NCBI GenBank assembly: GCA_964014485.1
Contig: CAXHAT010000074.1
Span: 1 to 35,511, forward strand
Direction: 5' to 3'
From: an uncultured Deferribacteres bacterium
GTDB lineage: Bacteria > Zhuqueibacterota > Zhuqueibacteria > Zhuqueibacterales > Geothermadaptataceae
Length of the DNA stretch: 35,511 bases
Positions 18,004 to 35,511 of this stretch are shown here, piece after piece. The stretch's first letter is position 1; each line of letters starts with the position of its first letter. Both the position numbers and the translations under genes were made by a program. The notes beneath the pieces are model-generated. The model ran no database searches. It saw only the letters and a list, made by a program, of their open reading frames with translations, and was not told the origin of the DNA.

Positions 18004-20502
18004 TTAGGATTTTTTCTCAGCCTTTTCCTTCTCGGCGGGTTTTCTGTCAGGTTTTGTCTTGGTAGAATCAGATTTGGTAGAATCAGCCTTGGTTCCTCGC
18101 CCCCGCTCTCCACCAGAAGACCGCTTTAGGGCCCGGTTTTTCAAACTGTCAAAACGCGATGTTTTGGAATTTCTCTCAAGTAGCTGTTGGATTCGCGCCG
18201 CTTGTTCTTCTTCTTCCACATCTAAAGGTCGCGTCATTCCCGCGTCGCCCCCCAAGCTATCGCTTTGAACTTCAGACGCCTCAATTGCGGCGCTGTCCGC
18301 AAGAGCAGGGTTGGCCGCCGCCAGACTATCGGCTTTTGCCGCAGCTTCCAATTTCGCAAGAGAATCGGCGACCGCTTTTCTTTGCTGCTTCACATACTCT
18401 ACTTTGGATTTGATCTCGCCGGCGTATTGGGATCGTGGAAAATCTTGGGCGAGGCGCTCATAATAATCGAACGCCTTTTCGTTATCCTTAAGTTTGTTTT
18501 CATGAATCCAACCCAGCGTGTACAACAGTCGCTGATTCACGGAATCCGGCTGCGGAGATTCCAAGGCGTTTTCAAAGCGCGTGATAGCAGTTTCCGGCTG
18601 CTCTTCAGAAAAAAGCGCATCGTAAGCCGATTGCAGAGCGCCGTCGATGCGAGGCGAAGTTTTTACCAGTGTATCGCTTTCGCTTTCAACAAGCCCAAGC
18701 TTGACCGCCGCTTTTCTTCCATGTTCAGTGTCCGGGTAATTCAGCGTCAGAATCTGGTAAATGCTGTCGCGAACGGCTTCATTTGGAAATTCGTGCTCAT
18801 AAATATATGCGAGCGAATAGAACGAAAAAGCGCGTTCTTCCGCAACTTCACTTGTTGTCAGGACGTCCAGGTAGAGGTTTAAGGCTGAGTCGGGAATTTC
18901 AAATTCAAACAAAAACAACTCCGCCATCTCAAAATTTTTCTGTGAAATCAAGGCATGAAGACTGTCCGAATCTCCAGGGCGTACTTTGATTGTTTTTTTT
19001 CTGGGCTTGGTGCGCCGGTCTCGAGAATTCGGAGAGTTTCTTCTATTATTCTCATTCGCCAGTCGATTCTGTTCCGCCTGCCCCAAATTTCTTTGCGAAC
19101 GCGGGTCTTGGCGATTATTAAAATTTCTCTGATTATTTGCTGTGCTTGAATTTCGATTCTTTTGATCGCGCTGGGAAGCTCTGGCAGTTTTGAAACGAGG
19201 TTCTCTCTTCGTCTCATTCTCAAATTCGGCTATTTCTTCTTCGTTTAACACGACCTCTATCATTTCCGTTTTTTTCGGGGGGCGCGCCGCGCTCTTGGCG
19301 GTATCTTCAACAGCCGTTGTATTCTCTTCCGCCACGTCAGGGTTTGCGGCGTTTTCATGCCACTCTTCCAACTTTGTCAAAGCCTTTCGAAAATTCACCA
19401 CTTCTTCTTGCAGCCCGACGAGCATTTTCAGATGTTCTGCGCGTTTGTCCGCTTCTTCAACGAGCTCGTGTTTCGCGAATTGCCGTTTTACATGGCGATA
19501 GTTTTCTTCCGCGGCTTTATAATTTGAGAACATCGTCTCGTCGTATTTTGCCAGTGCGAAATAAGCGCCGGCGGCGCCTTCAGTCCTCGGATGGTCGTCA
19601 ATAATATCGTTGTAAAGTTCAAGCGCCTTGCCATCTTCGCCAGTCGCAAGATATACGTGGGCCAATTCCAATTTTGCATGATAGATTTCTTTATTCTGGA
19701 AATCTTTGTCGACAAGGTCTTTTAAGATTTTCTTTGCTCGGAACTGTTCTCCCGAAGCTGCGACAGCCACGCCGTAGGCTAAAGTAGATTGAAATCTCGT
19801 GTCCTGCTTTTTAGCGCGCTTGCTCGCTCTGGCCAAATATTCAGCGGCTTTTGAGTAGTCGTCCAATTCCGAATAGCATCGTCCGAGGCGCATCAAGGAT
19901 TGAACTTCCAACTCGTTATTATCGACGCTGCCAAGCGCTTGCTCGTACTGCACAACAGCTTCGTCGTACTTCTCTTGCTTAAATCTGGACTCGCCAATCC
20001 AAAAGCTGGCTTGTTTGCGAAAGCGCTTTTGCTGGCCCGCGACCTGTTCGACCAAAATCGTCTCCGCTTCGCGATATTCTTCAAGATTGATTTTTGATTT
20101 TGCCAGCCACAACTTTGCTTCAGGTGCATGCACGCTATTCGGGAAATATTCCTCCAGTTCTTCAAATTTCCGCTCGGCTTTACGGTATTCTTCGATGTAA
20201 TAATAACTTCTGCCGATAATCATGATGGAGTCGTCGACATACTTGCTTTCCGGAAATAGTTGGACAACTTTGCTGGCTTGATTGATAGCCTTGTCAAACT
20301 TCTGTTTTTCTTGTGACGACGGTTGTTCCGTCACCCTGTTCTTATATTCCTTGAGCGCTTCGTTATAATATTTTTTGGTGTTGTAGAAAGTGTTAAAATA
20401 TGCGCAAGAACTTGTAAAAAGTGCGCCTGTCGCCAATAACACCGAAACGCCTCGTTTCAGCAAGATCATGTTTTTTGTGGAAGGGCTATTTTTATCGGTC
20501 AT
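18004..20502 (-). CDS. Large TPR-repeat lipoprotein
   Basis: Lipobox-like FTSSC followed by AYFNTFYN; many TPR-like helical repeats; low-complexity N/R/Q insert and charged tail; start uncertain (20502 or 20469). Confidence 0.75.
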   Translation of the reverse strand: MTDKNSPSTKNMILLKRGVSVLLATGALFTSSCAYFNTFYNTKKYYNEALKEYKNRVTEQPSSQEKQKFDKAINQASKVVQLFPESKYVDDSIMIIGRSYYYIEEYRKAERKFEELEEYFPNSVHAPEAKLWLAKSKINLEEYREAETILVEQVAGQQKRFRKQASFWIGESRFKQEKYDEAVVQYEQALGSVDNNELEVQSLMRLGRCYSELDDYSKAAEYLARASKRAKKQDTRFQSTLAYGVAVAASGEQFRAKKILKDLVDKDFQNKEIYHAKLELAHVYLATGEDGKALELYNDIIDDHPRTEGAAGAYFALAKYDETMFSNYKAAEENYRHVKRQFAKHELVEEADKRAEHLKMLVGLQEEVVNFRKALTKLEEWHENAANPDVAEENTTAVEDTAKSAARPPKKTEMIEVVLNEEEIAEFENETKREPRFKTARASQRDQKNRNSSTANNQRNFNNRQDPRSQRNLGQAEQNRLANENNRRNSPNSRDRRTKPRKKTIKVRPGDSDSLHALISQKNFEMAELFLFEFEIPDSALNLYLDVLTTSEVAEERAFSFYSLAYIYEHEFPNEAVRDSIYQILTLNYPDTEHGRKAAVKLGLVESESDTLVKTSPRIDGALQSAYDALFSEEQPETAITRFENALESPQPDSVNQRLLYTLGWIHENKLKDNEKAFDYYERLAQDFPRSQYAGEIKSKVEYVKQQRKAVADSLAKLEAAAKADSLAAANPALADSAAIEASEVQSDSLGGDAGMTRPLDVEEEEQAARIQQLLERNSKTSRFDSLKNRALKRSSGGERGRGTKADSTKSDSTKTKPDRKPAEKEKAEKKS

Positions 20503-20661
20503 TTTTAAAGCTCGTTTTGAAAATCTGCATTGTGAACCAAGCGCATTGGCGGTCTTAACATAGAGATAACCGACGTAACTCTGACAGGGTTCCAAACCCC
20601 GTCAGCGTCAGAAGATTTCCAGAAGCCAATCTCTTAACGCTGAAATGGGAATATTGATCCT

Positions 20662-23034
20662 TTACTCGGAATCGATTAATCCGAGCAATTTGTCTCTCGC
20701 AGCTTTGTCGCGGATTGCACGTTCTCGATAATCCTGGGCTTGAGAATGCTGAGAATCGATTTCTAGAATTCGATCAAAAAGCGCGATGGCTCTTTCATAT
20801 CGCCCTTCGGTGTATTCAGTCACGCCCGTGTTGAAGAATTGTTCGACTTGAATCGTCAAGATTCGGTTACACTCAGCGATTCTTTGATGACATCGCGTTG
20901 ACTCCGGGGCGCGATTACAAATATCTCTGTAGTATTCCAGCGCAAGCAGATAATTTCCAGCAATAAACGCTCTATCGGCGTTTCTATATCTCGATTCGAC
21001 GTCCAGGTTATTGAGCGCGTCTTCTTTTCTCGAATGCACGTCTTTATAGCTTTTATCGTCGATCAAAATTGAGTCAAAATGGGCTATGGCCGCCGTCCAG
21101 TTTCCAGCATTAAATTGATTCAAACCGCGAACATAAATTGCATTAACAAAGGCAGCCTTCGCTCTTGCCACGCGTCTTAAAAGGTTACTGGCTAAATCTC
21201 GCCTCGGCGGATATTTTTTCAATTGCTCAAATCGTTGTTTAGCGCGTTCGAAATCGCTCCGTTCAAGCAACCTTCTCCCCGAGTCCACCAAGCTCTGCAC
21301 TTCCCTCGCGAGTTTCCGTTCGATAGCCTTTCGTTTTTGCTTCGCCTGATACAAATCAGGGTCGGCTTCCAGCGCGCCTACCAGCATATTGTCTGCGTCA
21401 ATATACTCCGCTCTCCGGATGTGATCGTCAGCCCACTGCAGCATTTTTTTCGTTCGTTGAGCTTGGTCTTCGGCTTCTTTGCTCGCTTTTTCAAAATACT
21501 CTTTTGCGGCAAGATTATCAGTGTCATAGTTAACCGCAAGTTCAAAATTTTCAGCGGCCTGCCGATATTTTTTCTGTTGAAAAAAGCCAACGCCTCGCTC
21601 GTAATGCTTGCGCGATTCCTCTCGGTACCTCTCATTGAGTTTCAAGCGCACCGTATTGCCGGCAACATGCGACTTGTCGAGTTCCAAAACATAGGAAATC
21701 GCCGTTTCGGCGTCCTTCAATGAATCTCTCGACAAAGAATATTCCGCCGTAGCCAAGAGATCTTCTATATTCTGATCGACTTTCAATTGAATCGCCGTGA
21801 GACGTCTGGGAGCTTCGGGATTTTCACGATCCAACGAAATAATTTTTTGATAATTCAAAGCGGCGCCGATGTACCAGCCCTTTTCCTCATATCCGGCGGC
21901 TTCAACAAAAAGATTGTCAATCTTCTGCGTCGTCAGATTCAGTCTCTCATTTATTCTGGCCATCAGGGCAATTGAAAGCGAGTCGTTGGGCACAAAGCTC
22001 AGCGCATTCTGCAATGACTTCAAAGCGCGTCTCGGCATTTTATTGCGATAAAGACGCACGCCTTTCGCACGAGCGTCGCGGGCGCGCATCGAAGGCGACT
22101 TTCCCAATCTTACCGCAAAATCAGCCAAAATCGTCTGTTTTTCAAATGAGTAGGTCACGTCGATGCTGTAGTGGCGTGAAAGAAAACTCGCTCCCAATGC
22201 GGTGCGGTCAAAATCAAAATCTTCGATTCCCCCCACCACGTTCAAAAAGCCGCGAATCGGAACGGCAACGCCAAATCTTGGCAAAAACATTTCATCGTCA
22301 AAACGAAAAGAAGAAAAGAGCGTCGTTCCGCTGTTGAGCAATCTATAAAATGCTGAAACGTCGCCGTACGCTCTCAGTTCGCTGGGCCCAATCGGAATAT
22401 CCTGGACGGTCAGCGCCAGCGCAAACTTTTGCGGCAAAATAACATTGTTAAACCATTTAGATTCATTGATGCGCAAGGCGTTCAGCTCTGAGCTTTTTGA
22501 AAACGGAAACGCATACAACCCGAAAGAGAGATTGCTGTCAAAAGCCGATTCTCCTGAAAATCTGTTAAAATTAACCGCTCCTCCAGCATAAAAATAGCGC
22601 GTAACTTCCCGGCCAAATCCAAATATGACGCGACGTAAATAATGATTTTCTGAATTCAGCGAGTCTGGGCTTAAACGAGGCGAAGGGAATTCGGTTAAAG
22701 CAAACGCCAAGCTGCCGACATTGGGAAAGAAATAGGAAAGCCCCAGAAAACTGAGGCTAAAAGGATCGCTGGCAGAGGCGCGGAATTGAGCGTCCTTGAT
22801 TAAACCGAGACTGGCGGGATTCCAAAAAGCCGCGGCAGGATCGTGAATGGCGGCGGTCAGCGCGTTGCCCAGTCCGGCGGCGCGCGCACTCGGATTGGCG
22901 AACTCAATCAAAGACTGCGGCGTTAGTTTCGCTGGAGCCAACAAAACCAGCGCCAAAAACAGGAGTTTATACTTCTGAATATGCTGTTTTATTTCCAGTT
23001 GACGGGTATTAAGCGACTCAACAATAGCGGTCAT
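20662..23034 (-). CDS. PorV/PorQ-like outer-membrane barrel fused to TPR repeats
   Basis: SARAAGLGNA...DPAAAFWNPASLG N-terminal motif, beta-rich first ~310 aa, then TPR repeats (HYERGVGFFQQKKYRQAAENF, FFNTGVTEYTEGRYERAI). Confidence 0.65.
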   Translation of the reverse strand: MTAIVESLNTRQLEIKQHIQKYKLLFLALVLLAPAKLTPQSLIEFANPSARAAGLGNALTAAIHDPAAAFWNPASLGLIKDAQFRASASDPFSLSFLGLSYFFPNVGSLAFALTEFPSPRLSPDSLNSENHYLRRVIFGFGREVTRYFYAGGAVNFNRFSGESAFDSNLSFGLYAFPFSKSSELNALRINESKWFNNVILPQKFALALTVQDIPIGPSELRAYGDVSAFYRLLNSGTTLFSSFRFDDEMFLPRFGVAVPIRGFLNVVGGIEDFDFDRTALGASFLSRHYSIDVTYSFEKQTILADFAVRLGKSPSMRARDARAKGVRLYRNKMPRRALKSLQNALSFVPNDSLSIALMARINERLNLTTQKIDNLFVEAAGYEEKGWYIGAALNYQKIISLDRENPEAPRRLTAIQLKVDQNIEDLLATAEYSLSRDSLKDAETAISYVLELDKSHVAGNTVRLKLNERYREESRKHYERGVGFFQQKKYRQAAENFELAVNYDTDNLAAKEYFEKASKEAEDQAQRTKKMLQWADDHIRRAEYIDADNMLVGALEADPDLYQAKQKRKAIERKLAREVQSLVDSGRRLLERSDFERAKQRFEQLKKYPPRRDLASNLLRRVARAKAAFVNAIYVRGLNQFNAGNWTAAIAHFDSILIDDKSYKDVHSRKEDALNNLDVESRYRNADRAFIAGNYLLALEYYRDICNRAPESTRCHQRIAECNRILTIQVEQFFNTGVTEYTEGRYERAIALFDRILEIDSQHSQAQDYRERAIRDKAARDKLLGLIDSE

Positions 23035-24503
23035 TAGTCAACGGTATCTTCAAATTGGTAGTTGATTTCGCAAATCTGAATAGGTCGGGTCCGTCCCTTG
23101 ACAATAATTGGCTGCAGCATATTCTTGGGGTATTTTCCGTTCAGTGCGCCGTCATCGCCGATTGTTGAAATAATTTGTCCCGCCTTGGCAATCGAGCACA
23201 AGCGAGAGGCGATATTGACGACGTCCCCGATCACCGTGTAGTCCATCCGATGCTTTGATCCCATATTTCCTAAAATTGCTGCGCCGCAATTCACTCCGAT
23301 GCCGACTTCAACAACCGGCTGTTTGGCGCCGTTGCGGCGGCGGTTAAGCTCGCGAATATCACGTTGAATTGCGACGGCGGCGGAAACGGCGTTGTCCAAC
23401 ATCCGTTTTGCCGGGAAAATTGCCATGATCGAATCGCCCATAAACTTGTCGACAATGCCGCCGTGAGTTTCGATATGCACGGTCTGCAGATGAAAGTAAT
23501 CGTTGATCAATTGGACGACGTCTTCAGCACTGAGCGTTTCTGTAATGCGGGTAAAATTTCGAATATCTGAAAAAAGTATGGCGATTTGTTGCTTTTGCCC
23601 GTGGCGCGTCGGCTGCAAACGTCCCCCGTTTCTCTCGCGAATCATCTGAACCGTGAGCTTTGAAACGAATTTTTGCATATGCAATTTTTCACGAATATGG
23701 CTGACCATACGATTGAATTCGCGCGCCAACTGTCCCAATTCATCCCGGCTGCGTCCGTCGACCTCAACCTGCAAATTCCCCAGCCCAACCTGCCTGGCCG
23801 CAGAGCTCAGTTCGGTGATCCTTGTTACAAGTCTTCCGGCGAGCATTAGAATTCCCCACACCGCCACAATAATCACCAGCGCGCCAACCAGGTAAATAAT
23901 TGACCTTGCCGCATCAATCGGAGCGTCCACCGCATCTTTCGAAAGGCCGACGCCAACGACGCCCAAGATCGCCTGTCTTCCCTCGCTGTTGGGCTTTGTC
24001 ATCACCGGGTGATAATATTCGATGGTCTCACTTAAAACCAGACTCGTCGGCGATGTGACGCTCAACAATTTGAGATACGTTTCCCGCCTCGCTTGCACCT
24101 CCTGAGTCGCCGATTCCGGCCTCACCAGGGACAGCGAGTCCCTGTCTAAAACAAAAGCGTAGGAAAATTCTTTATAATTGCCGTTGAGCATGAGCTCAAG
24201 CTGCTCCTGAACAGAGCCGGTCGGCATGCATTCATCGGTGACTTTGCACAGCAAAATATTTTTGACGTCTTGCACCAAATGCCCGGCCAGCATATGGCCG
24301 ATTTCATTCACTTTTTCGGTGTAAATTTGCTTTTGGCGAATTAAAATAGGAATGCTAAACGCGCCCACAACCGCAATCACGATAAGGACGATCACAGCGC
24401 TCAGCTTGTATTTGATCGCGAGGGATTGGACGAACCGCCTCGAAGCGATCAAGCTGGACAGGTAAAGACTTTTAAATTTCTCGATTCGCATATTTTTCGA
24501 CAC
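23034..24503 (-). CDS. Membrane-bound class III adenylate/guanylate cyclase with HAMP domain
   Basis: Two TM helices; HAMP (SRDELGQLAREFNRM); LFSDIRNFT, VDKFMGD, DYTVIGDVVNIASRL, VKGR. Confidence 0.92.
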   Translation of the reverse strand: MSKNMRIEKFKSLYLSSLIASRRFVQSLAIKYKLSAVIVLIVIAVVGAFSIPILIRQKQIYTEKVNEIGHMLAGHLVQDVKNILLCKVTDECMPTGSVQEQLELMLNGNYKEFSYAFVLDRDSLSLVRPESATQEVQARRETYLKLLSVTSPTSLVLSETIEYYHPVMTKPNSEGRQAILGVVGVGLSKDAVDAPIDAARSIIYLVGALVIIVAVWGILMLAGRLVTRITELSSAARQVGLGNLQVEVDGRSRDELGQLAREFNRMVSHIREKLHMQKFVSKLTVQMIRERNGGRLQPTRHGQKQQIAILFSDIRNFTRITETLSAEDVVQLINDYFHLQTVHIETHGGIVDKFMGDSIMAIFPAKRMLDNAVSAAVAIQRDIRELNRRRNGAKQPVVEVGIGVNCGAAILGNMGSKHRMDYTVIGDVVNIASRLCSIAKAGQIISTIGDDGALNGKYPKNMLQPIIVKGRTRPIQICEINYQFEDTVD

Positions 24504-25774: not shown

Positions 25775-25997
25775 GTTACGCGCTTGTCAATAATGCATGC
25801 TTTAAATTGGTTTTTAGCCGAATCGAATATTGCAATTGAGAATGAAGCTTTCTGACCCCAAAACGTTTTTCAAGGTCATTCCTGCGGAGGCAGGAATCCA
25901 GGGGCAGTGCACTATTTTCTGGATTCCTGCCTCCGCAGGAATGACGCGTAGAGCAAAGTTTTTAGTCAAATGCCATATCATTCGTTAGCCGCGCACC
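25775..25997. repeat. MITE-like element copy B with central REP-like palindrome
   Basis: Perfect 27-bp inverted arms at 25875-25901 and 25919-25945; flanks are the reverse complement of the copy A flanks. Confidence 0.85.
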
Positions 25998-28246: not shown

Positions 28247-28287
28247 AGAGATATTCCATTTTTGAGTTTAACCCGACATTCCGCACG

Positions 28288-28409
28288 TCATTAGCCCCGG
28301 CTTTCAAGCCGGAATTTTGGTAAAATCACACTTTTCTTCTCCCGCCGCGCAAGCGCGGCGGGGAGGGGAAGGACGCTCTCGTCACCGCCCTGAAGGACGG
28401 CGCTAATGA
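28288..28409. repeat. REPIN-like composite palindrome with strong central hairpin (possible terminator for the DGR operon)
   Basis: Inverted 25-nt ends TCATTAGCCCCGGCTTTCAAGCCGG and CCGCCCTGAAGGACGGCGCTAATGA; central CCCGCCGCGC-AA-GCGCGGCGGG at 28341-28362. Confidence 0.65.
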
Positions 28410-28533
28410 GAGAAAGAAATCATTTCCATCTCTAATTTTTGTGTGCGGAATGTCGGTTTAACGGCTTTCGCGCCCGAATACAGGATTTTAGCAATAATGC
28501 CAGGTTTGTTTTCCCGCCCCCTAAATTGCCAAG

Positions 28534-28589
28534 CCCGCTGCGCGGGAAAAATAACCAAATGACTCAAATGATCAAATAGCCAATGATTG
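28534..28589 (-). promoter_or_regulatory. DGR IMH-like tract and hairpin downstream of VR2
   Basis: 25 nt (28565-28589) identical to 32286-32310 and absent from the TR; hairpin CCCGC-GCA-GCGGG at 28534-28546. Confidence 0.75.
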
Positions 28590-30023
28590 TCCGGAACGAA
28601 CAGCGCGGACGAAGACGCTGAAGTCGACAAGATCGCTGCCGCAATAACCGAGGTCGAAACCGACAACCCAGACGTCCGACGCGGCGCGCTTGTCCGCAGT
28701 CCAAATCCACGATTGCGCTTGTTCGAACAGTGGATTGATGTATAAGCCGTGTTCATTCGGCTCCGGTTCCATCAATGACATGGCTTCTTCTAGCGTGGGC
28801 AAGCGCCAGTCGTCGAATCCGGCGAATTCGGCCTGATTCAGGCTGTCGATGTATGCCTGCGCCTGAACAAAAGTCATCCTTTCAGTCGATCCGCCTTGCT
28901 GCCAGGTCAGATTGACGGCTTCGTCAACAATAAGCTGCGCACCCTCGCGCTCGATGAACTTGAATTTGTTCTCGACTCCGGCGCCGCGCGGGTTCCACAA
29001 TCTGTCATAAAAGCCTTTGTTTCGCAGCATCTCCGTAAAAGCGGAAACTTCGGAAATTGTTGTCGGTTCGGATCGCAGCAAAGGTACGCTTGCGTGCGGC
29101 GTTTTATCCTCGGCTTTTCCAAAATCCGGCATGATCGCCACGGCAAGATAAAAAATCGTTACCAGCATCATCGCCATGAAACCGAGCGTGCTCACCGGCT
29201 TTTCGTCAACGTTAAAACGTTTGCGAATAAACCTGAAGGTAAAATTGAGCTTGAGCAATAACTTGACCGCGAGACCAGACACGGCGTAGAGCCAAATCCA
29301 GACCGAGGTAAAAAAAGCCGTGTAAAAGGAAATCGAGAAAAACGGAAACGGCTCGGAGCGGAAGACGTCCACCCAAATGAGAGATTGGCTGGTGAGCGGC
29401 AGCACTTCTTCGAAGTAGACGGAGATCAACGACACGAACGATTGATCCGGCACGAAAAGCATGTCCCAAATCGATCCGTACAAGCCGGTCTTGATAAAAA
29501 TCGGTATGATCACAATCGCGATTAAGCCGGTTATGACGGCGTCGGTGAGAAGAAGAAGCACATGCTTGAAAAAAGACTGCGTGGAGGACATCCACTTGAT
29601 GACGAGACGGGTTTCAAGGAGGGAGAGGTAGTCCGGGATCAGGTTGAGCAGAAGGAGCACAAGCAGCGCGTTGAAAAGATAGCGCGCTTCAAATTCAAAA
29701 GCGCTCAATTCACTCCAACGTACAGCGGCCCAGATGAGAAACATGAGCGTAAAGGAAATTGCCGAGGCCAGACAAGAGCGCCAGAAACATTTCCAGGCGA
29801 GGTGTTTTTTGCCGAACACGGCGTCGAAGGTCTCAGCAAAAGTGCGCGGCCATCCGCCGAGGCTCTCGGGCGTTTTCAGATTTTTGAGCCACCGCGTCAC
29901 AGACTGCTTTGTCTCGGCGTTAAGCACGTCCTCGGCTTTTTCAAAAATACGGTGTATGCCGTAAGAAACGCCCAGCCAGGAGCCGAGGGCGATCAAAAAG
30001 GAAGAATTCAGGAAACCGTCCAT
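28572..30023 (-). CDS. DGR target 2: multi-pass membrane protein with C-terminal DUF1566/Lcl (CLec-fold) domain
   Basis: About 6 hydrophobic segments in the first 300 aa; C-terminal LTWQQGGS...AGFDDWRLPTLEE...WIWTAD...VRAVRSG; 3' end carries VR2. Confidence 0.88.
   Translation of the reverse strand: MDGFLNSSFLIALGSWLGVSYGIHRIFEKAEDVLNAETKQSVTRWLKNLKTPESLGGWPRTFAETFDAVFGKKHLAWKCFWRSCLASAISFTLMFLIWAAVRWSELSAFEFEARYLFNALLVLLLLNLIPDYLSLLETRLVIKWMSSTQSFFKHVLLLLTDAVITGLIAIVIIPIFIKTGLYGSIWDMLFVPDQSFVSLISVYFEEVLPLTSQSLIWVDVFRSEPFPFFSISFYTAFFTSVWIWLYAVSGLAVKLLLKLNFTFRFIRKRFNVDEKPVSTLGFMAMMLVTIFYLAVAIMPDFGKAEDKTPHASVPLLRSEPTTISEVSAFTEMLRNKGFYDRLWNPRGAGVENKFKFIEREGAQLIVDEAVNLTWQQGGSTERMTFVQAQAYIDSLNQAEFAGFDDWRLPTLEEAMSLMEPEPNEHGLYINPLFEQAQSWIWTADKRAASDVWVVGFDLGYCGSDLVDFSVFVRAVRSGQSLAI
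28590..28682 (-). repeat. DGR variable repeat VR2
   Basis: 93-nt ungapped match to the TR (31528-31620) with 18 mismatches, all at TR adenines on the coding strand. Confidence 0.96.
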
Positions 30024-30032
30024 TTATTCGCC

Positions 30033-31568
30033 TTATGGCAAGTCGTCCCAGGGATATTCTACGATCAAATACAGCACCCGTTCTTTTGTTTTGTACCGCT
30101 CGCGTCCGGTTTGGCGGACAATGACTAATGGAACGCGCGATTTCCGCAAACGCTCGGCGATTTTGTCTAAACAACGGGCGGGAAAGCCACAGCCGTATTG
30201 ATAACCGCGCCATTTGGCGTGTAACACAAGCCCCGCCGTTTGCGCCAAAATTTTTGCATCCCGGCCAAACGCTTCATAATAACACCCGATTTCAATAAGC
30301 CGGAGATGTTGGGGAAATTCCTTGCGCAGCCAGGTGATTTGCTGTTTCAATGTTTGTTTTTTGCGCAAGCCCCGGTCGCGGCGAACGAGCCTGCGCGAAG
30401 ATAATCGGTAGAATTTTTCCAGAAAATTGAATTCGCCCCAGAGTTTTTCGAGTAGTTTATGCGTTTGGGCATGTTTGAAATGGCCGAGGTAAGAATTCAT
30501 CGCGGCAAGAAGCGTTGCGAGCGTTTTTTCATGAAAATGATAAACGATGTAATGGCCGCGATTCGCTGCAAGTTTGTCTCGCACTTTTCTCAAACGCGCT
30601 GTTACATGTCCAACTACTCTGCGACGCACCAATAGATAGTGTGACCGAACTATAAACCCTGCAAAATCAACACCGCCTGAGACAGGCGCAATGCGAGAAG
30701 CTTGCTCTCGTAAACTCAACTGGAGGCGCTCTGCAAGGAATGCCGCGATCTTTTCTTTCCAGTCTCGCAATCTCGAAGGATCGAGATCAAGAAGAATGAA
30801 ATCATCAACGTAGCGGAGATAATAGCGGCATTTGAGCTCGTGTTTGACAAATTGATCCAGCGCGTCCAGGTAGACGTTGGCGAAGAATTGACTGGTGAGA
30901 TTACCGATGGGCAGGCCGCATCCCGGTTTTGCATGGAAAAGCGACTTATGCGGCGGCAATTTGAAACGCAGATTTTCACGATCCATCATGCAATAGTCCG
31001 CTGTTGGATCGTGAAAAACGACGATGCGCAGCAACCAGAGCAACTCCGGCGCTAAGGAACGCTGCGTCAGGCGCTCGAACAGCCGCCGCCGGTCGACGGA
31101 CATGAAAAAATTGAGAATGTCGAGCTTAAGATAGAAGGCGCGGCGGGAGCCGTTGCGGGTAATTTTGCGCAAGAAGCCTTGCAATGCAAATGCGGCGGCG
31201 TGCGTTCCCTTGCCGGGGCGGCAGGCGTAGGAGTGGTGAACAAATCTTTTCTCCCAGACCGGTGAGAGTGCATTATAAATCAGGTGGTGGACGATGCGAT
31301 CCCGAAACGCAGCCGCGAAGATTTCCCGGCACTTGGGCTTTTCGGTATAAAAACAGATCGAAGTTGACGGCTTGTAACGACGTTCTCGCAGTTCGTTGAC
31401 GAGCGTGAGCAGGTTCGCTTCCGCATCGATCTCAAACGCCAGCGCGCTTACCGAATTGCGCTTGGTTCTCCGGCAAGCCAGCCAGGCGCGGTACATCCGC
31501 GGGAAAGTAAACAGCGACGGACGATTATCCGGAACGAACAGCGCGGACGTAGTTGTTGTTGTCGACAT
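30033..31568 (-). CDS. DGR reverse transcriptase with C-terminal MutS-domain-I-like fusion
   Basis: FRDRIVHH, YLKLDI..FF.S, GLPIGNLTSQFFAN (DGR-type SQ motif), YLRYVDDF (YVDD at 30801-30812); start uncertain (31697, 31568 or 31496). Confidence 0.95.
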   Translation of the reverse strand: MSTTTTTSALFVPDNRPSLFTFPRMYRAWLACRRTKRNSVSALAFEIDAEANLLTLVNELRERRYKPSTSICFYTEKPKCREIFAAAFRDRIVHHLIYNALSPVWEKRFVHHSYACRPGKGTHAAAFALQGFLRKITRNGSRRAFYLKLDILNFFMSVDRRRLFERLTQRSLAPELLWLLRIVVFHDPTADYCMMDRENLRFKLPPHKSLFHAKPGCGLPIGNLTSQFFANVYLDALDQFVKHELKCRYYLRYVDDFILLDLDPSRLRDWKEKIAAFLAERLQLSLREQASRIAPVSGGVDFAGFIVRSHYLLVRRRVVGHVTARLRKVRDKLAANRGHYIVYHFHEKTLATLLAAMNSYLGHFKHAQTHKLLEKLWGEFNFLEKFYRLSSRRLVRRDRGLRKKQTLKQQITWLRKEFPQHLRLIEIGCYYEAFGRDAKILAQTAGLVLHAKWRGYQYGCGFPARCLDKIAERLRKSRVPLVIVRQTGRERYKTKERVLYLIVEYPWDDLP

Positions 31569-31620
31569 GATTGTTGTTGCAATTACCGTTGTTGAAATTG
31601 ACAACCCAGACGTCCGACGT
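31528..31620 (-). ncRNA. DGR template repeat (TR)
   Basis: AAC/AAT-rich, reads SDVWVVNFNNGNCNNNHVDNNNYVRAVRSG-stop in the VR frame; lies between avd and the RT core; differs from both VRs only at adenines. Confidence 0.96.
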
Positions 31621-31660
31621 TCTTGTCCCGATACTTGTTGGAGCTGTTCCAGCACGTTTG

Positions 31661-31687
31661 CTGGATTCCCGCCTGCGCGAGAATGAC
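31661..31687. repeat. Single REP-like arm inside the avd-TR spacer
   Basis: Minus strand GTCATTCTCGCGCAGGCGGGAATCCAG, same family as the arms at 14260, 25875 and 35443. Confidence 0.75.
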
Positions 31688-31811
31688 ATGGAAGCAACGA
31701 TTTGGAACGGCTCCGCTCGACTGCACCACTCGCGCTTTACGGCAACAGGCGCGTCGGATCAAAGATACCCTGTTTGCAATTGCAACAGGGTGACCGGGAT
31801 GCACAATCATC

Positions 31812-32213
31812 TTATCGGCGCGCTCTCGTTTCCGGCTGAGCGCCGGAAAAAGATTCTGGCCGGTCGCGTTTTTTCATCGTTTTTAGCCAGCCTTCGTTCT
31901 GTTTGCACAGCTCCGCCACCTGATTGATGCTGTGTTGAAAGGAATTGAAGTTGGCAAACGCTTTCAAATCTTTGCACAGGCGGATCGTTATTTTCAAATC
32001 TTCCAGCCTGTCCCGGCAAAGCAGCAGACCGGGCGCCTTGTCTTCGGCGTCATTGGCTTGCCGGATTAGGCGCAAAATTTCACGCGAGATTTGGCGCAAT
32101 TCCGCGCCAACGGTGTATTTGTGATAACGGCTGAAATTGCGCACGATTTTTTCAAAGTAAAGGGTCAGATCATAGGCTTGTTTGTAGATGGGCAAATGTT
32201 CGTACCTTGCCAT
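31812..32213 (-). CDS. avd: DGR accessory variability determinant (four-helix bundle)
   Basis: Basic 133-aa helical protein MARYEHLPIYKQAYDL...FSRYHKYTVGAELR...LCKQNEGWLK; immediately upstream of TR-RT; GGAGAG RBS before ATG 32213. Confidence 0.88.
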   Translation of the reverse strand: MARYEHLPIYKQAYDLTLYFEKIVRNFSRYHKYTVGAELRQISREILRLIRQANDAEDKAPGLLLCRDRLEDLKITIRLCKDLKAFANFNSFQHSINQVAELCKQNEGWLKTMKKRDRPESFSGAQPETRARR

Positions 32214-32252
32214 TGCTCTCTCCGGTTTTGCGCCATATTTCAAATTTTCAAA

Positions 32253-32310
32253 CCCGCTGCGCGGGAATTAAAGAATCAAATAACCCAAATGATCAAATAG
32301 CCAATGATTG
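32253..32310 (-). promoter_or_regulatory. DGR IMH-like tract and hairpin downstream of VR1
   Basis: 25 nt (32286-32310) identical to the tract after VR2; hairpin CCCGC-GCA-GCGGG at 32253-32265. Confidence 0.75.
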
Positions 32311-35300
32311 TCCGGAACGAACAGCGCGGACGTAGTAGTCGCTGACGACACGAACGTAGCTGCAAACACCGAAGTCGAAAAAGACAACCCAGACGACCGA
32401 CGCGTCGCGCTTGTCCGCAGTCCAGATCCAGCTCTGCTTTTGGTCGAATGCCGGATCGATGTACAGATCGCCGTTCTTCTTTTCCGGCTCCATTAGTGTC
32501 ATCGCTTCTTCTAGTGTCGGGAGACGCCAGTCATCAAAACCGGCGACTTTGTCCCGGTTCAGCTTTTCCACATACTCCTCGGCGTTCGTATAATTCATCG
32601 TATCCGATGATCCGCCCTGCTGCCAGGTCAGCCCGCTCGCTAAATCCGACGCCAATTTTTCGCCGTTCGCTTCGAGAGGCATGAGCGCGGTGCTCACACC
32701 TCGCCCTTTCTTGTTCCAGTCCGAGTCGAATAGCCCGACCTCCGCCAACATCGTTTTAACCTGATCAACTGAAAGCGTTTGCGGCTCACTGCGCAGTTTT
32801 GGCGGCTCAACCCCCAACGCCGCCAGCACTTTCGGCAGGCCGTCTGGATTCTTCAACCCGGTACAGCGGTTCAGCTTGAGTTGTTTTAATTTCGGCGTTT
32901 TGGGCAAACTTGCGAGGTCTTTTAACCCGGTAAAGCCGCTCAGGTTCAAGCGTTCGAGCGCAGGCAGTTCGGGCGGCAGGAAGCTTACATCTTTCAAATT
33001 GGCGCATTCACTGAAATCCAACGATGCGAGAGCGCCGAACTGTCGGGCAAAATACGGGAAGACTTCGCGGTGAAAATCCGAATCATCGAGAGAGTCCTTG
33101 AGAATTTCGTCAAAAACCGACGTGCGGGAATCACCGGCGTAGCTTGCCAGAACCGTGCGCGCCGCTTCATCGCCAATCAATTTGAGAGCGTGTACGCAGG
33201 CCGCAGCTTCAGGAATCGTGAGCTGTTCCCGCCAACCCAAATGCGTCGCAGCCAGCGTTCCCGCCGCCGCAATCGCCTTGGCGTCTTCCTTGTTTTTCGG
33301 CGGAATCAGCGTCGTCAAACTTTCGTCCACCGTACCCCGTAGCTCCCGGTCAACAACCACTGCCGTTTCCAGACAGGCGACGGCGAGCAAGTGAAAGTAG
33401 TGTCGCCTCTCGGCGTCCCGGTCTCCAGCTTCTACAAGATTACGAATGATTTTGTCGGCGGCTTTGGGCGCGGCGTGCCCGGCGGCGAGAATCACGACTT
33501 CGCGCCACTGGTCGTCATGCGCATTCTGATGCAAAAAACCCAGGTCGCCTTCGTCAATAATCGCCTTCGCGGCCAAAAACTCCTGAAACGTGCGGTGGGC
33601 GAAATCCATCTCTCCTTCCACTGGCGATTGCAACAGCCCGCTGCGCTCCACCAAAAAAGCGCGAATGTTCTTCGCTTCGTCTTGAATTCCGAGATTCGGG
33701 AGTTGCTTTTCAAAACGCTCATCGGCCTCTTCAAATGAAATCCGCGACCAGCCGTTGCGCATCATCCAAAGCGCCAAATCTTCCAGCAAGGCCCGTTTTC
33801 GGGTGTAGTTGAGTTCAGTGGGCGCGTGCGTCGTGTCCACGCCCACGCTCTGTTCCCTGCCCCGGCGCTCCAGAATCATCTCGCAGCAGGCTTCATAAAG
33901 ACGCAGGCGCTCTGACGGAACATCCTTTTTTCGCTCGCGATGCAAGGCGCAAACGGCGGAGCAGAGCAGCGGATTGGCGGTCAGATTGCGCAATGCCAAT
34001 TTGGTTCTGATTTCGCTTTTCAAGCTTGCTTCCAGATCATCAAGTTCGGCCTTTTCGTCGTCGCGGAACAACTCCTTCTTCACCGCGCGATGCCAGTGCT
34101 CGATGAATCGGGTAATTTGCGTCAAGCCCATCGATTCAAAGGTGAATTCATTGAATCCTTCGCGGGCAAGACGGCCTTCTTCCATGGCGCTGGGTCGCGT
34201 CGTCACCACGAATTTTGTCTTTTGAAATTTCTTATTGCCGACAAGCTCTCTGAGCCATTCATAAACGCGCTCTCTTTGGTCGGGCGGCGTTTCATCCACG
34301 CCATCGATCAGAATGATCGCGCGTCCGGCGGCAAGCAATTCGCGCACCCAGCCTTTCGGCGTCTCTTCAGCGATAGTAGGTAGCAAATGTTCCACAAATT
34401 CCTGAGGCGCGGGCAAGTCGCGGTCGACGAATTTGCGCAAGTAAATGATGAAAGGCACTCTGTCGTTCAACGCGGCAAGCTCGCCCTGAAAGCGGTGCCC
34501 AGCGCACTGCACGGCGACCCATTTCACAAAAGTGGTTTTACCGCTGCCCGCCAATCCGCGCACTACTAAGCGGTCGCCGTAGTTCAAAACGCCGTCCGCG
34601 GCAACGACGAGATTTTCATCGGCTTCTTTTCTTGCGCCGCTTGACATGGAGAGACTAATGTACGCCACCGTCAAGCTGTGACGGCGGCTCCCCTGGCGCG
34701 TGACATCCAGGCCGACGAGCTTGATCTCGTCCAACGTTTCCACCAAGGTCTTACGGTAGTCTTCCTCAAACTGTGCGGCGGCGACTTCAGGATTAACCGC
34801 CTGGCTGCTTTCGCGAATTTTTCGCAGTTCATTGAGAACGCCGTCAACCTTGTGGAGCAGTCGATCTTCGCGCTTCAGCACTTCGGCGAACATATTCTCA
34901 TGAAAACTCGGCAGGCGCGAGGCGATCCCGACAACGTAATGGGCGCATTCCTTGAGCACGCGGTCGCAGAACGATTGCTCGGCTTCGGAAAAAGCGCGCA
35001 TTTTGTCGGCGCTTTCCTGTTGCAGCAAACGGTAAAGCTTGATTGGATCGAGATTGATTTCGGCGAGTTTCGCGGCGTCGATTTTGAGTTGATTCAAGAT
35101 ACCGGCGGCGGTTTCGGCGAGCAGCTTTCTCGTGTCGTCGTCCAGCGCTTGCTGCCGGAACACATGCTCAAGGTTTTTCGCCACTTTTATTGCGACGGCT
35201 TCAAACTGGCTGCGCCCCTGCCGCGCCGCCATGTCGCTGGAAACACGAGATTTCAGCAGATCAATAATTTCTCCGCCGAGTTCTTGTGGTAAACCAGGAT

Positions 35301-35376
35301 CGGGAAGCCAGAATTTCAGGATGGTTTTGGCGACCGCCGAGCCGAGGGTTGTGAAAAGAATGTCTAAAAGAGCCAT
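32293..35376 (-). CDS. DGR target 1: NLR-like protein (helical N-terminus, NACHT NTPase, LRR, DUF1566/Lcl CLec domain)
   Basis: Walker A GLAGSGKTT (34531-34557), Walker B IILIDGVDE, VVTTRP, NPLL, FAHRTFQEFLAA, WREV; about 3 LRRs (LASLDFSEC, LERLNLSGF, LKQLKLNRC); WRLPT domain ending in VR1. Confidence 0.92.
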   Translation of the reverse strand: MALLDILFTTLGSAVAKTILKFWLPDPGLPQELGGEIIDLLKSRVSSDMAARQGRSQFEAVAIKVAKNLEHVFRQQALDDDTRKLLAETAAGILNQLKIDAAKLAEINLDPIKLYRLLQQESADKMRAFSEAEQSFCDRVLKECAHYVVGIASRLPSFHENMFAEVLKREDRLLHKVDGVLNELRKIRESSQAVNPEVAAAQFEEDYRKTLVETLDEIKLVGLDVTRQGSRRHSLTVAYISLSMSSGARKEADENLVVAADGVLNYGDRLVVRGLAGSGKTTFVKWVAVQCAGHRFQGELAALNDRVPFIIYLRKFVDRDLPAPQEFVEHLLPTIAEETPKGWVRELLAAGRAIILIDGVDETPPDQRERVYEWLRELVGNKKFQKTKFVVTTRPSAMEEGRLAREGFNEFTFESMGLTQITRFIEHWHRAVKKELFRDDEKAELDDLEASLKSEIRTKLALRNLTANPLLCSAVCALHRERKKDVPSERLRLYEACCEMILERRGREQSVGVDTTHAPTELNYTRKRALLEDLALWMMRNGWSRISFEEADERFEKQLPNLGIQDEAKNIRAFLVERSGLLQSPVEGEMDFAHRTFQEFLAAKAIIDEGDLGFLHQNAHDDQWREVVILAAGHAAPKAADKIIRNLVEAGDRDAERRHYFHLLAVACLETAVVVDRELRGTVDESLTTLIPPKNKEDAKAIAAAGTLAATHLGWREQLTIPEAAACVHALKLIGDEAARTVLASYAGDSRTSVFDEILKDSLDDSDFHREVFPYFARQFGALASLDFSECANLKDVSFLPPELPALERLNLSGFTGLKDLASLPKTPKLKQLKLNRCTGLKNPDGLPKVLAALGVEPPKLRSEPQTLSVDQVKTMLAEVGLFDSDWNKKGRGVSTALMPLEANGEKLASDLASGLTWQQGGSSDTMNYTNAEEYVEKLNRDKVAGFDDWRLPTLEEAMTLMEPEKKNGDLYIDPAFDQKQSWIWTADKRDASVVWVVFFDFGVCSYVRVVSDYYVRAVRSGQSLAI
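32311..32403 (-). repeat. DGR variable repeat VR1
   Basis: 93-nt ungapped match to the TR with 18 mismatches, all at TR adenines on the coding strand. Confidence 0.96.
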
Positions 35377-35402: not shown

Positions 35403-35511
35403 GTTACGCGACAACTCGAAAATACAAAAACAGTTTCTCAACGTCATACCCGCGGAGGCGGGTATCCAGCGGTTGGCGCCATTTTCTGGATACCCGCCTC
35501 CGCGGGTATGA
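35403..35511. repeat. MITE/REP-like element copy C (truncated by the contig end)
   Basis: Begins with GTTACGCG like copy B and the reverse complement of copy A's right end; inverted arms at 35443-35469 and 35486-35511 with compensatory base changes. Confidence 0.8.

Follow-up and report, generated by a model that had tools for sequence, protein, structure and literature searches.

A lectin-tipped six-helix membrane protein among the targets of a DGR in an uncultured Deferribacteres bacterium

Closely comparable to the locus reported here are the putative DGR antigen sensors of Thiohalocapsa PB-PSB1, which include NACHT-lectin targets, targets diversified in trans, shuffled domains and multi-pass targets with periplasmic lectins, and for which the parts of the report drawn on here put forward, as a proposal only, sensing in all compartments (Dore 2024, PMC10907252). 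Multiple and remote targets, a DUF1566 class of targets and RTs with a MutS_I tail (the last noted for three RTs) were described by Wu 2018 (PMC5758913), and NTPase-FGS and ternary conflict systems with DGRs by Kaur 2020 (PMC7159879) and 2021 (PMC8195603); the comparisons below draw on parts of these papers.

Like the Thiohalocapsa system (PMC10907252), the locus is a chromosomal multi-target DGR with NACHT/STAND-lectin targets, in-trans action and chassis shuffled under one lectin module, in a genome with several DGRs and with a multi-pass target whose lectin is predicted to be periplasmic (DGR 9 target 1 in Thiohalocapsa). Of the features of Dore-type clade-5 sensors, we found STAND NTPase/TIR targets, several loci and trans targets (the NACHT target 1, a remote TIR and a remote NTPase gene, and a second DGR on contig C135). 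Unlike in Thiohalocapsa, the module is Lcl_C and not FGE-type, and the window (the whole 35,511-nt stretch of DNA that was analyzed, to which coordinates refer) contains no MoxR/vWA genes. The domains of the DGR 9 membrane region are not defined in the parts of PMC10907252 drawn on, and the likeness of our second target to it is one of description; the motif of the six-helix (6-TM) family described below does not occur in the text of that paper's supplement, which may omit protein sequences. With CLec2/DUF1566 targets such as Legionella LdtA (PMC5758913), the locus shares the Pfam module, multiple and remote targets and MutS_I-tailed RTs, but the targets covered in the parts of that paper drawn on are short or surface/lipoprotein proteins, unlike ours, and five 6-TM family motifs gave 0 matches in 1.15 M characters of its supplement. 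As in the Kaur systems (PMC7159879, PMC8195603), the lectin fold is always C-terminal on diverse effectors or NTPases, Sel1 follows TM segments and there is a link to DGRs, whereas no adaptor (EAD) or vWA-MoxR parts were detected here; the multi-TM domains in the parts of those papers drawn on belong to another system, and no match between them and the 6-TM family was made. A design in which one template serves both membrane and cytoplasmic targets has been published before; what is new here is the domain family.

The cassette and its diversified targets

The cassette lies on the minus strand in the order target 1 (T1), avd, TR, RT with a MutS_I-like tail and target 2 (T2), with the following features:

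32293..35376, minus strand: target 1, with NNH1, NACHT, LRR and Lcl_C; no transmembrane helix seen
32306..32402, minus strand: VR1, with 17/27 template adenines changed and 1 non-adenine difference
31812..32243, minus strand: Avd accessory gene, likely start ATG 32213
31523..31619, minus strand: TR, AAC/AAT-rich, fitting VR1, VR2 and two remote VRs at 69/70 non-adenine positions
30033..31496, minus strand: DGR reverse transcriptase with a MutS_I-like tail at its C terminus, likely start ATG 31496
28572..30023, minus strand: target 2 gene, 483 aa, with six-helix membrane domain, linker and Lcl_C C-type-lectin-fold module
29130..30023, minus strand: unnamed 6-TM domain of T2 (aa 1-298), predicted N-out/C-out
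28572..29078, minus strand: Lcl_C (DUF1566) module of T2 (aa 316-483), predicted periplasmic
28585..28681, minus strand: VR2, with 14 template codons containing adenine
28520..28584, minus strand: 3' tail after VR2, 86% against the VR1 tail and 95% against that of the remote C30 target

T2 is a true DGR target gene. VR2 (28681-28585) differs from TR (31619-31523) at 17 of 27 adenines and at only 1 of the 70 other positions (Fisher p 3.5e-11), the sole non-adenine change being a T/C difference at the 3' end that is common to all four VRs, and VR2 lies at the end of a C-type-lectin-fold domain, as expected of a DGR target. Together with the Lcl_C module and the six helices, this bears out the original prediction, made from the letters alone, of a polytopic DGR target with a paralogous variable module. 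Its 14 mutable codons allow VR2 to reach about 1.5e14 peptides, and a stop codon is impossible at any of them; no VR2 variants were listed among the assembled contigs of a single study, for which depth was low. The T2 ATG (30023) does begin directly past the RT stop (30033), with nine bases in between. RT and Avd occupy adjacent intact ORFs with matches to RVT_1, the PADLOC RT model and bAvd, the Avd score lying under the NCBIfam curated cut-off and over that of Pfam; the MutS_I-like domain that ends the RT spans 30033-30350 (E 6.7e-9).

Multi-copy inverted-repeat elements flank the cassette (35444-35511, 25875-25945, 31651-31693 and 28268-28461, with 64, 103, 180 and 20 genome matches, respectively), and a half copy sits between avd and TR; by analogy with the MITE-like repeats in Dore 2024 (PMC10907252), they are possible recombination handles. 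Two long TPR genes and a HAMP-class III cyclase gene at 18004-24503 are located upstream of mazG, and nothing ties them to the DGR. A promoter scan stayed at chance level. The sequencing runs that contain the stretch are marine, and no RNA run is listed among them.

The module at 28572-29078 has the predicted length of 168 aa, is 56% identical to that of T1 over 170 aa and matches Pfam Lcl_C over aa 364-476 with a score over the gathering threshold (E 4.9e-18); in the full-length T2 model, the lectin part shows the expected mixed strands and helices, at low confidence. The genome encodes 13 paralogous modules on NACHT, NTPase, TIR-like, CHAT-like and single-helix chassis. The LRSEP start that had been singled out as common to T1 and T2 is present in both but is not special, as several of the 13 paralogues begin with a similar motif of the (L/F)R(S/T)xP type and as the T2 module minus its VR is about as close to a module on C135 (57% identity) as to that of T1 (55%); a tree of the lectin modules is mostly without resolution (14/18 branches open). 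At the DNA level, T1 and T2 are highly identical only in the VR, the last 20 to 30 bases upstream and about 60 bases downstream, and thus the portable unit common to both is the 3' VR cassette. The 3' ends of all four VRs are alike and distinct from TR. A 5-bp hairpin, CCCGC-GCA-GCGGG, lies at 28546-28534 inside the 3' tail of VR2 and recurs in three VRs; the hairpin region as a whole folds no better than shuffles. The hairpin-bearing tail is, we infer, likely a homing signal.

When the whole assembly (465 contigs) was scanned, two more VRs matched TR at 69/70 non-adenine positions, with the next best at 48/70. One is in a gene for a membrane-tethered NTPase-Lcl_C protein with weak nSTAND matches (G000 C30:43229-45097, or L133:7230-9098) and the other in a TIR-like-Lcl_C gene (C135:22452-21514; TIR label by eye). 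The anticipated sharing of one TR between a soluble NACHT protein and a membrane protein therefore stands, but judging from these matches TR serves at least four chassis (T1, T2, the C30 gene and the C135 gene) and not two. Contig C135 also carries a second complete DGR (C135:10638-5262; L134) with its own RT (57% identical to that of the window), Avd, TR and two targets, one of them having a single helix and a long outer region and the other being soluble, with a coiled coil.

The membrane domain and its relatives

The expected six or so transmembrane segments are seen in T2 both by hydropathy and in an AlphaFold2 model (all-helical, pLDDT 83.7, pTM 0.81), and both polar motifs noted at the outset are present: NLIPDYLSLLETR at aa 127-139 and YTAFFTSVWIWLY at aa 234-246. 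Conserved loops on the predicted cytoplasmic side span aa 28-83 (FDxxFGxxHLSWxCFxRS), 134-153 and 254-277, and conserved polar residues within the membrane comprise N127, D131, S134, R139, D161, T239 and S240. Near-invariant residues, about 25 in all and mostly on the cytoplasmic side, include H74, C79, D67, D131, D161, R139, S83 and S87; nearly all family-conserved residues are kept in T2.

As in the original reading, which could assign it to no family, the membrane domain fits no named family. Pfam returned no family for T2 aa 1-315 at E 0.01 and, among 24 homologues at E 0.1, nothing over the cut-off in the membrane domain; NCBIfam gave no match to it at E 1, the 2023 PADLOC library 0 families at E up to 1 and a PDB sequence profile search 0 matches at E 1, and no profile match to named membrane sensor domains (MASE, MHYT, 5TM-LYT, 7TMR-DISM) was found. 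Foldseek against the PDB gave 0 matches at E 0.001, and BFVD (viral folds) gave 0 matches to the membrane-domain model. The best VIA-align result was a partial match to RND/sterol-sensing helix bundles (Z 7.0, rmsd 4.4, 132 residues aligned, identity 5-9%), with a Z that does not rise above the background given by the tool for bundles of helices. None of the fold searches thus yielded a usable match, absences that are no proof of a new fold. Close matches in the ESM Atlas were "hypothetical protein" clusters only. No description of the domain was found in the literature searched, which lay outside subscription papers and PDF supplement figures. Two candidate assignments were dropped: the lipocone superfamily, for which the portion of PMC12419801 drawn on gives no link, and connexin-like domains, which in the part of the source drawn on are animal proteins.

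The family is large, without a name and mostly stand-alone. A profile search returned 4,828 clusters at 50% identity, 1,549 of them at E 1e-30. Among the 150 top-ranking profile matches, 140 are no longer than 360 aa, i.e., stand-alone. Named loci belong to KSB1, Acidobacteriota, Gemmatimonadota, Proteobacteria, Planctomycetota and archaea. For both T2 and Avd the best named locus comes from candidate division KSB1, to which the host therefore probably belongs. The distribution is patchy (7/167, 3/401 and 4/380 genomes in three groups searched), with several copies broken or cut. Tandem or near-tandem paralogues were found in 4/126 loci; arrays of two to three divergent stand-alone paralogues occur at L091:3113-5803 and in L083, L093 and L121, the named members of their clade being Acidobacteriota.

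Which side of the membrane the lectin faces had been posed as a question at the outset. In 148 aligned sequences, the loops after TM1, TM3 and TM5 (28-83, 134-153 and 254-277) combine a K+R density of 0.16-0.21 and a length sd of 0.8-1.9 with the highest conservation of all loops (0.50-0.55), against 0.07-0.09, 5.5-10.4 and 0.12-0.18, respectively, for those after TM2 and TM4 (102-115 and 179-227). Because the K/R-rich, fixed and conserved loops are those after TM1, TM3 and TM5, both termini are placed outside (N-out/C-out), and the T2 lectin is predicted to face the periplasm. One extra hydrophobic helix precedes TM1 in 7/7 examined members with an N-terminal TIR, kinase or cyclase domain, as an N-out topology would require when the effector sits inside. 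The modules joined at the C terminus agree with this topology too, as they are binders or extracytoplasmic domains (Lcl_C, FGE-type lectin, Sel1, TPR and STN/Secretin_N), Sel1 repeats and STN/Secretin_N domains being extracytoplasmic. In T1 no transmembrane helix is seen, and its lectin is therefore predicted to be cytoplasmic, which would put the T1 and T2 lectin tips on opposite sides of the membrane.

The fusions counted are few, and the searches behind them were ranked by similarity. Among the matches listed, N-terminal (inside) partners were TIR (L010), Ser/Thr kinase (P0075, L080, P0195 and P0196) and class III cyclase (P0141 and P0173). Outside partners, likewise among the matches listed, were Lcl_C, detected by Pfam in T2, L001, L047, L049, L053, L054, L055 and P0138 and by tblastn in L051 and L058, along with FGE-type lectin (L010 and L028), Sel1 (many alphaproteobacteria) and TPR (L125). 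In two proteins the domain stands between an inner effector and an outer binder, as TIR-TM-6TM-FGE (L010) and kinase-TM-6TM-STN (P0195). Seven longer homologues were found with P0007 as the query and none with the alignment as the query in the 917-2615 aa range searched. The domain resembles MASE1, MHYT, 5TM-5TMR_LYT and 7TMR-DISM, polytopic sensor modules found alone or joined to varied cytoplasmic signaling domains, in that it too occurs alone or joined to such domains; its partners, however, are TIR, Ser/Thr kinase, class III cyclase and hypervariable lectins and not histidine kinase/GGDEF, as in MASE1-type sensors.

A tree from a quick search (121 rows, with 16 duplicate or fragmentary loci left out and 59/115 branches open) places T2 within a 10-row clade of Lcl_C fusions (SH-aLRT 98), with the Lcl_C fusion P0138 apart from it and the FGE fusions in a separate clade (SH-aLRT 100). 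Lectin tips thus appear to have been gained by the 6-TM domain about three times, at least two captures being certain because the lectin subtypes differ. The clade also speaks against the proposal that a whole module was grafted onto two chassis: with the membrane-lectin fusion older than the locus, and with only the VR cassette shared by T1 and T2, an existing gene was likely re-targeted.

Members with 2 to 20 Sel1-type repeats form a clade of their own (SH-aLRT 100; L016, L020, L024-L026, L029, L031-L036 and L040), mostly from marine alphaproteobacteria, including cultured Roseobacteraceae. At L054:2749-4593, an ATP-grasp (succinyl-CoA ligase-like) N terminus runs in frame into a 6TM-Lcl_C gene, probably through misassembly or chance fusion. 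One FGE-tipped member is present in a cultured halomonad. With the query used, no DGR-like RT was found in the genome of the L028 FGE fusion, which we therefore do not count as DGR-linked.

Unrelated DGRs, among them a gammaproteobacterial one, have by their sequences recruited the 6-TM domain more than once. The independent DGR of L010 (Sedimenticolaceae) comprises TIR-TM-6TM-FGE, DUF4062-nSTAND1-FGE, an avd-like gene, RT, TR and TIR-FGE; over its two gapless halves, the VR of the 6-TM target departs from TR at 12 adenines and 2 other positions. All three VRs of this DGR exceed its TR in length by 18 bases, which suggests a deletion in the AAC-rich tract of TR. This three-target DGR (L010:7389-15701) adjoins genes resembling an integrative element (labels by eye). 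L001, with Avd, TR and a frameshifted 6TM-Lcl_C gene (14 adenine and 5 other differences) but no RT in the locus, reads as a decayed DGR; past its TR, at L001:11351-11700, there are duplicates of the VR tail and of the beginning of avd, interrupted by a repeat and a transposase-like gene. In L053 and L055, Avd-like sequence lies downstream.

A proposed transducer and its alternatives

On the reading that we tentatively favor, at somewhat less than even confidence, T2 is a DGR target whose rewritten lectin tip, in the periplasm by prediction, sits on a six-pass domain acting as a receptor or transducer toward the cytoplasm. Being conserved on the inner side and variable on the outer, and occurring between inner effectors and outer binders, the domain most likely passes on a signal, and the TIR, kinase and cyclase fusions make it probable that it is not a plain anchor. 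Engagement of the lectin tip or, in stand-alone members, of the variable outer loops would shift the helix bundle together with its conserved cytoplasmic face, and in fused relatives this movement would switch the TIR, kinase or cyclase domain; T2 carries no such domain and would need a separate partner for its output. One template likely feeds the same variant surfaces to the periplasmic receptor T2, the cytoplasmic NACHT protein T1, the remote TIR protein and the remote membrane-tethered NTPase, and these four targets would act in parallel, not as one complex. That what they sense is an invader would be an extrapolation from published proposals.

Several observations count against a receptor. 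Most members have no attached effector or binder, and no neighbor gene is conserved across 46 genome loci. PADLOC matches were not more common near the 6-TM gene (14/139 ORFs) than at 4.5-8 kb (12/131; p 0.84), although this is a weak test, the near set being 139 of 191 ORFs scanned, with loci of fused members omitted, and the far set all 131 ORFs, some of them from other loci and at distances that may still fall inside an island. DGR modules, moreover, are known to have been added to genes of many kinds, so that a signaling link does not follow from a lectin tip by itself. The check proposed at the outset, on the domains and defense loci with which homologues associate, thus turned up TIR, Ser/Thr kinase and class III cyclase fusions but no enrichment for defense.

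The absence of a catalytic partner in most members would suit a different reading, in which the 6-TM domain serves as the effector in its own right, as a gated channel or membrane-depolarizing protein that opens when a ligand binds the periplasmic lectin. It would agree with the polar residues conserved within the helices, with the TIR-like, CHAT-like or NTPase domains that fill the N-terminal slot of other lectin modules in the genome, with the rarity of copies, several of them broken, and with the stand-alone members that adjoin Abi_alpha, Schlafen, RES, TIR or restriction genes (seen after the fact). We nonetheless think a channel rather unlikely, as the kinase and cyclase fusions place the domain in the sensor slot and as neither a PADLOC family at E up to 1 nor defense enrichment in near over far ORFs was found; the original suggestion of a pore or membrane effector finds no support as stated, nothing here showing a pore. 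Separately, at L120:5455-9588, a stand-alone 6-TM gene is flanked by TIR genes on both sides, downstream of a type I restriction-modification locus. H74, C79, D67, D131, D161 and R139 could equally well mark an ion path or a catalytic site, and together with S83 and S87 they are what a membrane enzyme or small transporter (acting on a lipid, for example) that is regulated or aimed by the outer binder would have to offer, along with the partial RND/sterol-sensing matches. Those matches are at background for helical bundles, at the low identity given above, and no metabolic operon context recurs, which leaves an enzyme or transporter distinctly improbable.

A little less improbable is a scaffold or passenger role for the membrane domain, in which case the DGR cassette would have landed on an accessory membrane gene that displays a variable adhesin-like lectin and sends no signal inward. 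The 13 paralogous modules on many chassis, single-helix anchors included, would fit, as would the weak resemblance to adhesin models in Lcl_C searches, the frameshift in the related L001 gene and the largely surface-protein character of DUF1566-class targets in the part of Wu 2018 (PMC5758913) drawn on. A plain anchor, however, needs neither six helices nor some 25 near-invariant, mostly cytoplasmic-side residues, and this same domain acquired a lectin tip on about three occasions and also became fused to TIR, kinase and cyclase domains. Finally, a complex in which T2 would serve the NACHT target as its dedicated membrane partner seems very unlikely to us. The two genes share strand and cassette, and an NTPase-lectin neighbor occurs in 3/5 DGR-type loci with a visible second target (the window, L010 and L055), but the NTPase partners in these three differ in type or architecture, the 6-TM genes of L001 and L053 are paired with non-NTPase targets, and tblastn found a T1-like NACHT in 0/126 loci. 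The early idea that T2 works with the NLR therefore loses ground, all the more with the lectins predicted on opposite sides.

What the diversified proteins do is an open question for cellular DGRs. Periplasm-facing targets need an inward signal route, for which the 6-TM domain is a candidate, and the TIR, kinase and cyclase fusions offer natural readouts in the form of NAD loss, phosphorylation and cyclic nucleotide; with these and a member in a cultured halomonad, the receptor idea is directly testable. A bolder version, which we consider doubtful, is that 6-TM proteins are new, widespread bacterial and archaeal membrane immune receptors with self-sufficient output, to which DGRs in unrelated phyla have repeatedly added a hypermutating periplasmic tip. 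If so, they would amount to Toll-like receptors whose ectodomain is adaptive (L010 being quite literally TIR-membrane-lectin), and one template would survey both sides of the inner membrane.
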